From: an uncultured Desulfospira sp.
Lineage (GTDB): Bacteria > Desulfobacterota > Desulfobacteria > Desulfobacterales > Desulfobacteraceae
DNA length: 64,000 bases
Reading direction: 5' to 3'
Assembly (NCBI GenBank): GCA_963663165.1
Contig: OY760175.1
Span: forward strand, 1,600,001 to 1,664,000
Both the position numbers and the translations under genes were made by a program. The first letter of the stretch is position 1; each line of letters begins with the position of its first letter. The notes beneath the pieces were generated by a model, which was not told the origin of the DNA, ran no database searches, and was given only the letters and a program-made list of their open reading frames with translations. Shown here in pieces: positions 18,864 to 52,940 of this stretch.

Positions 18864-19253
18864 ATGACTTATAAGACTGATTTATCTGAAAGCCTTGAAG
18901 ATTATCTTGAAACCATCCTGGAACTCCAGGAGAAAAACACCGTGGCAAGGTCAAAGGACATTGCCGAAAAGCTTGACATTAAAAGGGGTTCCGTTACCGG
19001 CATGCTAAAAAAGTTAGCCACCCAGGAACTGATCAACTACGAACCCTACGGGTTTGTTACCCTGACGGCAAAGGGGAAAAAAATCGCCCAGTCTATTGAA
19101 AAACGACACACTTTTTTTAAGGACTTTTTCTTTAAAATGCTGGAACTTGATGAAGACACCTCCGACAAAACTGCCTGTCGGATGGAACATGTTATGGACT
19201 CCAAAACATACCATAAATTCAAAGAGTTTATACAGAAAATCGGCGAAAAATAA
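18864..19253 (+). CDS. DtxR/MntR-family metal-dependent repressor (no C-terminal SH3/FeoA domain)
   Basis: LEDYLETI, HTH, SVTGMLKKL, LT.KG, RH, ACRMEH; AAGGAGG RBS. Confidence 0.92.
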   Translation: MTYKTDLSESLEDYLETILELQEKNTVARSKDIAEKLDIKRGSVTGMLKKLATQELINYEPYGFVTLTAKGKKIAQSIEKRHTFFKDFFFKMLELDEDTSDKTACRMEHVMDSKTYHKFKEFIQKIGEK

Positions 19254-45420: not shown

Positions 45421-45471
45421 AAGGCCCCGAGGATGTTCTTAAAATCGCCTTTCATCAACGGGGCCTTTTTT
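45421..45471. terminator. hairpin terminator between convergent genes
   Basis: aaggccccg/cggggcctt stem plus T-tract. Confidence 0.55.
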
Positions 45472-46193
45472 TATTCTCCTGTTCTGACAATCACTGCGCC
45501 GGCTTTTTCGTGGGCCAGGTAAAGTCGCAGCCCTTGAGGGCTGGACACGGTAACGGACTGGGTTCTCGGGGCATGAAGTCCCTGGGCCGCCTCCACGGTT
45601 TCAAGGACCAGGCTCACCCCCGGGGTGACCCCGTGGGTTTTCAAATGGCGGACCCCTTGAGGCCCCCCCATGATATCGGTCACCTCAAAGGCCTGGTTGG
45701 GTTTGGCGAAGTAGAACTGGCTCTTTTGCCCTTTTTCGCAGAATCCCCATATTTTGGCAGCTTCCCCTTCGGACAGCCGGGTCCGTTCCTTCCGGTTGAT
45801 CACGGTGATGTAATCCATGTGGGGCAGGGCCCGTAAAAATTTAATCTGAGTGTCTTCCTTGAGCCCGAGCCGCTCCAGGCTTTCCGCCAAGTACACGCCC
45901 CCGGAATGGATTTCAATATGGGCTTCCTGGTTTTTTTTCATTTCCGTTAAAGGAATGATGTTGCCGTCGTTTAAGTGGGCATAGACCTTTGTGGCCAGGC
46001 CGGCGGGAAGAACCACATCCCCTTTGGGCCCCCTGACCCGGACAGAGTAATAGTTAAAATCCTGGTCATGGCGGGTCAGTTTTCCGCCCACAAACAGGCC
46101 GAGCCGGTTCAGCCAGGTTTCAAGGGAAGGTTCGGTGATCTCCAGGATGACCAGCTCTGTATTGATGGGTGCATCAAGCAAGGATGAATACAT
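45471..46193 (-). CDS. multi-FeoA-domain protein
   Basis: Three FeoA/SH3-like units: LNRLGLFVG, LERLGLKED, LKTHGVTPG; start uncertain (46193 or 46226). Confidence 0.75.
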   Translation of the reverse strand: MYSSLLDAPINTELVILEITEPSLETWLNRLGLFVGGKLTRHDQDFNYYSVRVRGPKGDVVLPAGLATKVYAHLNDGNIIPLTEMKKNQEAHIEIHSGGVYLAESLERLGLKEDTQIKFLRALPHMDYITVINRKERTRLSEGEAAKIWGFCEKGQKSQFYFAKPNQAFEVTDIMGGPQGVRHLKTHGVTPGVSLVLETVEAAQGLHAPRTQSVTVSSPQGLRLYLAHEKAGAVIVRTGE

Positions 46194-51703: not shown

Positions 51704-51798
51704 GTTTTAAAACATTACTTTTATTATATTAAAATTTTTTAGTTATTCAATTCGTAGATTTGTTAATATTAAAAATACTATTTTTTGTCAATCTAAAT

Positions 51799-51814
51799 GT
51801 TAGGGATCTCTAAC
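51799..51814. promoter_or_regulatory. candidate DtxR-type operator (perfect)
   Basis: GTTAGGGATCTCTAAC, 7 nt upstream of a minus-strand TTGACA (51786-91). Confidence 0.7.
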
Positions 51815-51901
51815 GTAAAATTTTCCTGTATCGGATATGGTTCCCTTGGTTTAAATTGTTTTCTTTGGATTTTGTGGATTCAGGAGTTTAATGTATAAAA
51901 T

Positions 51902-51985
51902 TGGGACTTGGGATATGGGACTTGGGACTTGGGGAGGCCGTGGATGCCGCAATCCCCAGGTCCCATATCCCAAGTCCCAAGTCCA
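51902..51985. repeat. inverted (GGGACTT)n heptamer arrays
   Basis: gggacttgggatatgggacttgggacttgggg...ccccaggtcccatatcccaagtcccaagtcc. Confidence 0.75.
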
Positions 51986-52023
51986 TTTTTTTGGAGATTT
52001 AATTGAATGAATTCCCCCGGCCC

Positions 52024-52178
52024 AAAAGCAGAGAGGCAGCGTCCGCCAACCGGATGCTGCCTCTCTTAAGGCAAAATAAAGTAACATTAAGGAGGTTTTG
52101 CTTAAGCCGCTGTGACCTCAAAGGTGGAATGGCTTTTGAAGTCATCATGGGGTGAGGATGAAAGCAATACCCTTATGG
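52024..52178 (-). ncRNA. candidate small regulatory RNA
   Basis: TTGACA-N17-TAGAGT promoter, two hairpins with C/U-rich loops (one carrying CCUCCUU), 16-bp terminator stem with U-tract, no RBS-led ORF. Confidence 0.5.
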
Positions 52179-52231
52179 TGAGTCACTCTATATTAAAAAA
52201 TACTGCGTGTCAAGGAAAAGTTTTATAAAAC

Positions 52232-52486
52232 TTATTTTTTTATTTCCGTCTCATTTTCAAGTGCTTTCTGCTGCTTTTTGACTCTTTTTTCAGGCTGGTA
52301 CAAGAAGTGATGCCAGAGGGCGGCCCCGGCCAGCAGGGCACCGGCACCGGTGTGGATGTTTTTTAAAGTCCTGGAACGGTTCCCCTTTAAAAACGGAGCC
52401 GTGATGACGGCCACCCCGAGGGAGGCGGTCATGGCAATTTTGGCAATTTCTTTTTTAGTCTCGAGATCGAGCGGCTTTTCTGGCAT
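52232..52486 (-). CDS. small two-TM membrane protein with His residues
   Basis: KKEIAKIAMTASLG...IHTGAG.LL.GA.LWHH.LY. Confidence 0.7.
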   Translation of the reverse strand: MPEKPLDLETKKEIAKIAMTASLGVAVITAPFLKGNRSRTLKNIHTGAGALLAGAALWHHFLYQPEKRVKKQQKALENETEIKK

Positions 52487-52598
52487 TTCTTCGTTTTTTT
52501 CTCTGGATGGTTTTTTTAGTGCCTTTCCCGGTTTCAACAGCAAGGGCACAGGTCAGTACGGTTGCAACCCCACAGACGATAGGAATAAATGGTGCCAT
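52455..52598 (-). CDS. 47-aa membrane-anchored basic microprotein, not in the ORF track
   Basis: GGGAGG RBS; MAPFIPIVCGVATVLTCALAVETGKGTKKTIQRKKRRNARKAARSRD. Confidence 0.6.
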   Translation of the reverse strand: MAPFIPIVCGVATVLTCALAVETGKGTKKTIQRKKRRNARKAARSRD

Positions 52599-52697: not shown

Positions 52698-52868
52698 CTC
52701 TTTATTTTATATAATTTAATTTTATTTATATCATATATATAACTTTTTTAAATATTAACAACAATTCAGGGATACTGAAAGAATAATAAATATGACAGAA
52801 TTGATATATCCACCATACCCTAAAGGGCAGAAACCGGGACGGCTTGGGTTATCCAACCAAGCACCGCC

Positions 52869-52940
52869 CACAACAAAGCTGTTGTGACAATTCCAGATCT
52901 TTCCGCAACGCATCAGATGGGTGGCTTTCCGTCCAAACAC
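52869..52940 (-). repeat. truncated copy of the CTGCGTTG-family structured element
   Basis: Minus strand gtgtttggacggaaagccacccatctgatgcgttgc aligns with gtgtttgggcgataagtcacccatctgctgcgttgc at 9084. Confidence 0.6.

Follow-up and report, generated by a model that had tools for sequence, protein, structure and literature searches.

A previously uncatalogued family of small RNA genes in the sulfate-reducing Desulfobacteraceae, with a predicted role in iron sparing

In the RyhB and PrrF systems, an iron-bound repressor silences a small RNA (sRNA) that itself silences iron proteins, and both systems are Fur- and Hfq-dependent, as described in PMC9410917. The same source describes IsrR of Staphylococcus and FsrA of Bacillus subtilis as Fur-repressed RNAs with C-rich anti-Shine-Dalgarno (anti-SD) motifs that spare iron independently of Hfq, FsrA working with the small helper proteins FbpABC. 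MrsI (ncRv11846) of mycobacteria has a site for the DtxR-family regulator IdeR near its start, belongs to hosts without Hfq, is most conserved in a stretch of about 30 nt before the terminator and base-pairs within the 5' UTR of bfrA, whose mRNA encodes an iron protein (PMC6016810). In the manganese system of E. coli, one MntR-repressed transcript, MntS/RybA, is both a structured RNA and the message of a 42-aa protein (PMC4361602). The delta-proteobacterial FUR regulon has a gene set similar to the one met here (feoAB, flavodoxin, P-type ATPase, HD-domain protein and the MoxR/CoxE operon, the last in Desulfovibrio); its dFUR box is 17 bp long, and the text covered mentions no sRNA as part of it (PMC545781). 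No iron-sparing sRNA of a sulfate reducer, nor the RNA, operator or peptide described below, came up in literature searches at the level of listings and the openings of abstracts. The accessible text of an ncRNA prediction in O. alaskensis (PMC11124144) makes no mention of such an RNA, operator or peptide, and neither does that of a ferrosome paper (bioRxiv 10.1101/2020.01.10.902569).

The locus described here is best read, by analogy, as functioning like MrsI, IsrR, FsrA and RyhB with an architecture like that of MntS/RybA, and by the tests of homology it is related to none of them. Like MrsI, it has a presumed DtxR-type site near the start of the RNA, a most conserved part close to the terminator and a predicted partner in the leader of an iron-protein mRNA; however, no sequence homology was seen, the phylum and operator are different, the predicted target is cytochrome c3 rather than bfrA, and no linked small ORF is mentioned in the text of PMC6016810 covered here. 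Compared with IsrR and FsrA, its best-conserved seed is U-rich and is predicted to pair upstream of the SD, the promoter has an operator other than a Fur box, and the small protein that accompanies it is acidic and contains Cys and His. The logic would be that of RyhB and PrrF, whereas Hfq was not found and there was no Rfam match. Unlike in MntS/RybA, many genomes keep the two functions apart, and the peptide is matched by neither Pfam nor NCBIfam.

We analysed 64,000 nt of an uncultured Desulfospira sp. (contig OY760175.1, positions 1,600,001 to 1,664,000), hereafter the window, in which an earlier note had proposed an sRNA gene on the minus strand. The proposed gene is located 3' of feoA-feoB and two small ORFs; on its own 3' side follow an AAA/DUF2201 operon and then a cluster with three P-type ATPases. 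The features are listed in Table 1.

Table 1. Sequence features of the sRNA locus and related elements, in window coordinates (G001, the closest relative of this genome; members, the 29 loci of the RNA family; CM, covariance model; PWM, position weight matrix)
Feature	Position	Strand	Remarks
22-bp operator	52217..52238		3 nt upstream of -35; overlaps stop codon of upstream 84-aa gene
-35 hexamer TTGACA	52208..52213	-	TTGACA in 28/29 members, TTGACG in 1
-10 hexamer TAGAGT, 17-nt spacer	52185..52190	-	one change in G001
Predicted sRNA, ~156 nt	52024..52179	-	ends inferred from promoter and terminator; CM family
Hairpin 1, C-rich loop	52113..52144	-	lineage-specific 5' domain, not beyond G001
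5' arm	52162..52172	-	predicted pairing with 52094-52103, partly masking site 1
Site 1, anti-SD CCUCCUUAAU	52086..52095	-	CCUCCUUA in 17/29 members
Site 2, UUAUUUUGCCU	52069..52079	-	best-conserved seed; complementary to cytochrome c3 leader; 27/29 members
Intrinsic terminator	52024..52066	-	stem 52030-66 and short U-tract; covariation; G001 similarity ends just beyond
129-aa DtxR/MntR-family repressor	18864..19253	+	candidate operator-binding regulator; Pfam and NCBIfam
Second operator-like site	51796..51817		before -35 of AAA/DUF2201 operon; 10.5 bits; rank 41 genome-wide, symmetric PWM

The two promoter hexamers with their spacer, hairpins 1 and 2, the terminator stem and the upstream palindrome were all found where the earlier note had placed them, and the promoter scored 10/12 in a consensus scan. 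The minus-strand region folded better than shuffled sequences (z = -3.76; 1/200 shuffles equally good). Several details required correction. The 16-bp terminator stem is present but consists of 15/16 pairs with one A-C mismatch, and its U-tract is in this genome just four U after a GC. The sequence of hairpin 2 with its CCUCCUU loop is there as well; this is not, however, how the complete 156-nt RNA is predicted to fold, since the 5' arm pairs with one strand of it instead and leaves the hairpin 2 pairs a probability of ~0.003. The predicted cost of opening CCUCCUU (site 1) in this genome was ~3.2 kcal/mol, against 0.4 kcal/mol for site 2. An equivalent helix is common in the relatives, where the C of UGCC is paired upstream with a probability >0.5 in 17/29 members. 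The perfect 16-bp palindrome at 52218-33 exists but is not a meaningful unit, the genome having 277 of this kind; the conserved site is the 22-bp operator, centred ~2 nt further upstream. The hairpin 1 loop CCAUUCCACC occurred only in this genome and G001. G001 has 98% mean column identity over the predicted RNA and 86-91% in the upstream flanks; shortly beyond the terminator the two genomes cease to be similar, and the next gene there is convergent.

Other observations were made around the locus. A long imperfect inverted repeat of TTGGGAC-like units at 51901-51986, between the sRNA and the AAA operon, is missing at this place in G001. The overlapping small ORFs after feoB (47 aa, 52455-52598, and 84 aa, 52232-52486) had no Pfam or NCBIfam match; relatives of the 84-aa ORF were present in 23/161 family genomes, some directly before a gene resembling an HMA-bearing P-type ATPase. 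A segment of ~64 nt upstream of these ORFs (52844-52900) recurs elsewhere near the G001 locus and is perhaps a short mobile repeat. In the P-type ATPase cluster, a 240-aa protein (45471-46193) matches no family apart from a FeoA domain at its centre.

The Rfam and covariation search that the earlier note had suggested returned no Rfam family, but it did yield a covariance-model family with a covarying terminator. Rfam gave no gathering-level match in the window; the 34 matches at E<=10 were generic hairpins, none named RyhB, PrrF, FsrA, IsrR or MrsI. By blastn against 61 genomes the sRNA was matched only in G001, no paralogue was detected in this genome, and synteny with the upstream 84-aa gene led to no sRNA in other genera. 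A 16-nt hairpin 1 pattern with 2 mismatches was uninformative, matching 155/161 genomes. A two-sequence covariance model recovered ten further loci, and the 14-sequence core model that was then used with a threshold of 40 bits detected one copy per genome in 28/151 Desulfobacteraceae genomes, with the lowest member at 40 bits and the next match at 33. In a search of 151 genomes of the order nothing above 31 bits was obtained outside Desulfobacteraceae. Eight weak covariance-model matches had no operator-promoter by regular expression. The set of 29 members used below includes G110 (32 bits), added by inspection, and omits G147, which has no promoter; G023, G101 and a truncated copy in G089 were seen later and are outside the 29. 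A GTDB-wide pattern scan gave 48 matches, 13 of which were judged real members and the rest chance; their titles were Desulfospira, Desulfobacter, Desulfobacula, and Desulfobacteraceae or Desulfobacterales without a genus name. Among the 11 matches of a metagenome scan, 9 had the operator-promoter and 3 the ORF described below, at least one being apparently identical to a genome member. A metagenomic subfamily (L509, L511-L515) has another 5' domain, and its copies L512 and L515 are without a promoter within 330 nt. One Phycisphaerae record (L130) combines a promoter, C-rich CCUCCU repeats, UUUUGCCU and a terminator, and is possibly an unrelated anti-SD sRNA.

Conserved across the family are a core of pyrimidines, the covarying terminator and, next to TTGACA, the 22-bp operator. 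Promoter, operator and terminator signals were recognizable by sequence in 29/29 members. In the terminator, 7/9 modelled pairs had changed on both sides, which 0/500 shuffles reached; the alignment had been fitted to the tested structure, and slid controls scored lower. The anti-SD loop, singled out in the earlier note, did not prove to be the leading seed: its motif had decayed in 12/29 members, and its apparent invariance in the first 14 was owing to how those had been found. The U-rich UUUUGCCU (also written U[UC]UGCCU), kept in 27/29, was better conserved and more exposed. The "iron island" setting is real here but specific to this genome and G001; usually the RNA is divergent from a DUF2231 gene (21/29) and from a DOMON gene (20/29). 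The downstream gene is in sense orientation in 14/29 members and convergent in 15/29, so a leader role is not conserved. These comparisons show that the element is real, conserved across six genera and, as far as its signals can be read, a sigma-70 unit in its own right, complete from operator and promoter to terminator.

The operator is a 22-bp quasi-palindrome with the family consensus AAAGTTAG-N6-WWAACTTT, located 3-4 nt upstream of the -35 in all 29 members; one regular expression finds it before TTGAC[AG] in each. With PWMs built without this genome and G001, the window site ranked 1st in the 6.7-Mb genome when the matrices were asymmetric and 2nd or 5th when they were symmetric. A PWM learned from the sRNA promoters alone reached >=10 bits in 34/40 upstream regions of standalone feoA genes (1.0 expected from shuffles) and >=15 bits in 28/40 (shuffles 0.15); the 40 regions were hand-picked among the listed matches before scoring and, coming from relatives, are not independent samples. 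In the feoA promoters the operator lies mostly over the -10 and in several just 5' of the -35, as at the sRNA. The sRNA promoter thus carries a motif common to feoA, to which an iron-uptake repressor would bind. In this genome, 37 leaders of TonB, FeoA and periplasmic-binding operons scored above AT-matched controls (p = 0.0025 and 0.0095), and its own feoA promoter had only 2.7 bits. Other top sites preceded the peptide gene, a radical SAM gene that we take to be HutW-like, a TonB receptor, and also the iron-unrelated PGK and an HD-domain gene. Weaker operator-like sites of 3-12 bits are scattered across the island (31660, 37063, 44707, 51796, 52668), before nickel/cobalt transporter, fez-associated and AAA genes. 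The genome has 31 TonB-dependent receptor matches.

A DtxR/MntR-type gene is divergent from feoA in 21/40 regions, and its products are 56-84% identical to the 129-aa protein of the window. In that protein a Cys takes the place of the Glu ligand of B. subtilis MntR, and the MntR-like Asp near the N-terminus is kept; the Cys of the C-x-x-E-H ligand motif was present in all 20 full-length copies examined. Iron-sensing DtxR has a Cys in the corresponding ligand position (PMC2628430), and the presumed box of the 129-aa regulator has the TTAG-N6-CTAA core in common with the motif of the haloarchaeal DtxR-family protein TroR (PMC10783522). Since the operator is common to feoA and a DtxR/MntR gene stands divergent from feoA, its regulator is probably of the DtxR/MntR type rather than Fur. 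The published dFUR box did no better than shuffles at the feoA promoters (mean best mismatch 4.3 vs. 4.5). In the upstream regions of the 29 members it had 2-6 mismatches (median 4) and the E. coli box 4-8. The operator was also mostly missing upstream of Fur-FeoA-FeoA genes (2/26 loci above 9 bits). De novo palindromic EM on iron promoters recovered composition artefacts only. The analysis yields, at the level of sequence, a family-wide iron operator distinct from the dFUR box. Four DtxR-like proteins are encoded in this genome, one fused to an ABC-3 permease. The family-wide Fur-FeoA-FeoA regulator of ~326 aa is split here (G000:C1:4306657-4307622) into a 247-aa Fur-FeoA part and a separate FeoA piece, apparently without its usual N-terminus and promoter.

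A candidate target was picked by eye from a short list and was one of four then tested in orthologues. This is the class III cytochrome c gene (G000:C1:6387513-6387974, minus strand), whose leader mirrors the whole RNA core, with a complement of site 2, an AU-rich spacer and the SD. The comparison covered 22 of the members; G015 gave no c3 match. The seed complement GGCAA[AG] stood just before the c3 ribosome site in 20/22 carriers (19/21 without the discovery genome) and in 0/8 other genomes, against a background of 281/5213 genes. Pairing of site 2 alone with the c3 leader beat shuffles in 19/22 (a control gene, 3/21), and full-core pairing, with the anti-SD held fixed, in 18/22. By these three measures the predicted pairing with an iron-protein mRNA is conserved in 18-20/22 genomes, with few independent contrasts: presence and absence of the complement require only 2 changes on a one-gene tree, or about two evolutionary events. 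Cognate sRNA-c3 pairs were stronger than non-cognate ones (-14.7 vs. -13.4 kcal/mol; p = 0.02 by Wilcoxon test, with related genomes that are not independent), and matching one-base variants on both sides were seen by eye in G018, G179 and G086. In this genome and in G001 the c3 leader has an additional and longer stretch of complementarity near its 5' end (~-93 to -66, -25 kcal/mol). This distal site was significant in only 3/22 genomes, and the c3 transcript may begin no earlier than the site itself. Among the 5213 genes of this genome c3 ranked 71st with site 2, 181st with the core and 67th with the distal site.

The promoter-pattern search detected no member in G150, G154, G155 or G013, and the c3 leaders of the first three still pair well (-21 to -25 kcal/mol). 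G089, first counted as RNA-less among the non-carriers, has a truncated member of 98 nt (L518:1480-1640) with operator and promoter and without site 2; its predicted pairing covers the ribosome site and AUG of the c3 gene in that genome (p = 0.016). For G087, G091 and G094 the absence of the RNA is that of the first count. For the other three candidates, a ferritin-like protein, ferredoxin and rubrerythrin, the pairing was not conserved in orthologues (3/21, 3/23 and 3/7). A genome-wide duplex scan favoured 4Fe-4S genes (p = 3e-6), but this reflects SD strength: a bare anti-SD gave the same AUC (0.65), and 6-9/58 shuffled cores matched the real core. The target enrichment anticipated in the earlier note thus showed nothing for iron proteins beyond SD strength, with iron proteins defined by Cys regular expressions that miss many and genes taken from a simple gene finder (5364 genes). 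Hfq was searched for with PF17209, PF01423 having missed bacterial controls; it was not found in this genome (96.7% complete), while the control matched in 5/14 genomes.

In 10/29 members the promoter is separated from the core by an ORF of 45-49 aa that has a ribosome site. The earlier statement that no RBS-led ORF is present therefore holds for this genome, where the small ORF lies apart from the RNA, but not for these relatives. Clear in-frame remnants were seen by eye in 7/19 ORF-less members (in G081, G014 and G086 also by HMM), while the 5' domain of the window RNA has no ORF remnant; all 19 retain the operator and the -35. ORF loss would be the simplest reading of the remnants. The protein of ~47 aa is acidic, with invariant Cys and His (81% column identity, the peptide of this genome included), and was found in 68/161 family genomes, often in several or tandem copies. 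It has 850 database relatives, the 120 listed all being without a name or "hypothetical", and it matched no Pfam or NCBIfam family (Atlas scores <=0.79). A RiPP cluster was not supported, as the neighbours vary (LuxR, ArsA, radical SAM, ABC). In this genome the gene is located elsewhere (C1:3143544-3143687, L224:2545-2688; 47 aa), is preceded by the top symmetric operator match, has its own terminator and lacks the core. Some copies in other genomes are preceded by a second palindrome (ATGATAG-N7-CTATCAT-like).

A stand-alone minus-strand iron-regulon sRNA is well supported by the conservation, by the operator common with feoA and by the co-conserved iron-rich candidate target, all of them sequence comparisons. 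With moderate confidence we consider it a trans-acting iron-sparing sRNA that is non-homologous to the known ones. Its operator, strongly inferred to be the family's feoA operator, would be bound by the small DtxR/MntR-type repressor; the Fe-bound protein would repress transcription, so that the RNA would be expected under iron scarcity. Site 2, being U-rich and single-stranded, would nucleate on an A-rich stretch ~37-25 nt before the c3 start codon; pairing would then spread across the anti-SD site to the ribosome-binding site, blocking synthesis of the multi-heme c3. As no Hfq was found, pairing would be Hfq-independent. The earlier proposal of an iron-sparing functional analog in a sulfate reducer is supported as to an iron-regulon sRNA with an iron-rich candidate target; it differs in the anti-SD seed and the iron-island setting, and the regulator appears to be DtxR/MntR-type, not Fur. 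As for history, the RNA may have begun as the 3' portion of the message of a co-regulated small protein. Both functions would still be joined in 10/29 members, and the ORF would have been lost in others; this genome has its small-protein gene at another place, behind the same operator. That a discrete RNA is transcribed, that translation of c3 is blocked and that the RNA arose from a 3' UTR are what we infer from the comparisons above.

Several other explanations have to be weighed. The note had regarded the proposal as refuted if the region were only the 3' UTR of the upstream gene, and in part this applies: in relatives the RNA is the 3' UTR of the small-protein gene under the same promoter. 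It might then be no more than a conserved 3' UTR and terminator without trans function, ORF-less copies, that of this genome included, being relics or terminators of the upstream feo and small genes. The intact ORFs and remnants agree with this, as do the variability of site 1 and the lack of any other visible terminator between the 84-aa gene and that of the sRNA. It is nevertheless unlikely, given that all ORF-less members keep operator and -35, that this genome combines a new 5' domain with an intact core, that its peptide gene ends in a terminator of its own without the core, and that core-c3 complementarity is co-conserved. We judge it rather improbable that a real metal-regulon sRNA answers to another signal or with another sign, that is, to Mn instead of Fe or through activation by the metal-bound regulator. 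An operator upstream of the -35 would fit activation, the closest solved relatives of the regulator are MntR proteins, and a weak site precedes a ZnuA-type operon; TroR of T. denticola answers to both Mn and Fe (PMC2628430) and haloarchaeal TroR also activates a storage gene (PMC10783522). However, most feoA promoters have the operator over their -10 and others have it just 5' of the -35, and the ligand-motif Cys is that of iron-sensing DtxR in every full-length copy examined.

There is a similarly small chance that an iron-repressed sRNA acts mainly on other mRNAs, by broad anti-SD pairing or on a lineage-specific ferredoxin or [FeFe]-hydrogenase, or that it stabilises c3 mRNA. In this genome the leaders of ferredoxin, rubrerythrin, an iron-sulfur-flavoprotein-like protein and hydrogenase pair at least as well as that of c3, but the orthologue comparison above did not bear out ferredoxin, rubrerythrin or the ferritin-like protein, and the c3 pairing covers the SD; sRNA pairing over an SD usually means repression. 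Very improbable is a cis attenuator, in which translation of the peptide would set whether UUUUGCCU pairs upstream (terminator) or with the 5' strand of the terminator (read-through). RNAalifold does propose the latter pairing, the peptide stop codon lies within the 5' strand of hairpin 2, and the downstream gene is on the same strand in 14/29 members; against this, the gene is convergent in the others, site 2 persists in G124 despite a different terminator stem, and its predicted downstream pairing is ~0 in 27/29. We give hardly any credence to a Csr/Rsm-type RNA that would sequester protein from the plus strand, or to an antisense small ORF with its ribosome site here. AAGGAGG does occur on the plus strand, whose predicted fold is stable, but promoter and operator are conserved for the minus strand only, which agrees with the strand choice of the earlier note. 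The repeated GGA in loops typical of CsrB and RsmY/Z was not seen in the five members counted, which had 0-3 ANGGA per strand and 1-3 on the antisense one; no ATG lies 3-12 nt after the antisense AAGGAGG, and a TTG does so in 5/19, with unrelated lengths.

The trans-acting sRNA reading can be extended. Tentatively, and with less than even confidence, we suggest an sRNA being born: the iron-repressed mRNA of the ~47-aa protein would have gained a 3' UTR mirroring the c3 leader, acting as a dual-function transcript in part of the genomes and solely as an sRNA in those where the ORF has decayed, co-evolving with its target under an undescribed DtxR-type iron regulon that would have displaced Fur in Desulfobacteraceae.

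Sulfate reducers depend on heme and Fe-S proteins and inhabit places where sulfide precipitates iron, which is why their rationing of iron is of interest. The family offers a testable circuit with a single element at each level (repressor gene, 22-bp operator, RNA, seed and a target of defined pairing), and also a widespread small protein without annotation. The series from mRNA 3' UTR to stand-alone sRNA would be a rare natural record of the origin of a regulatory RNA.
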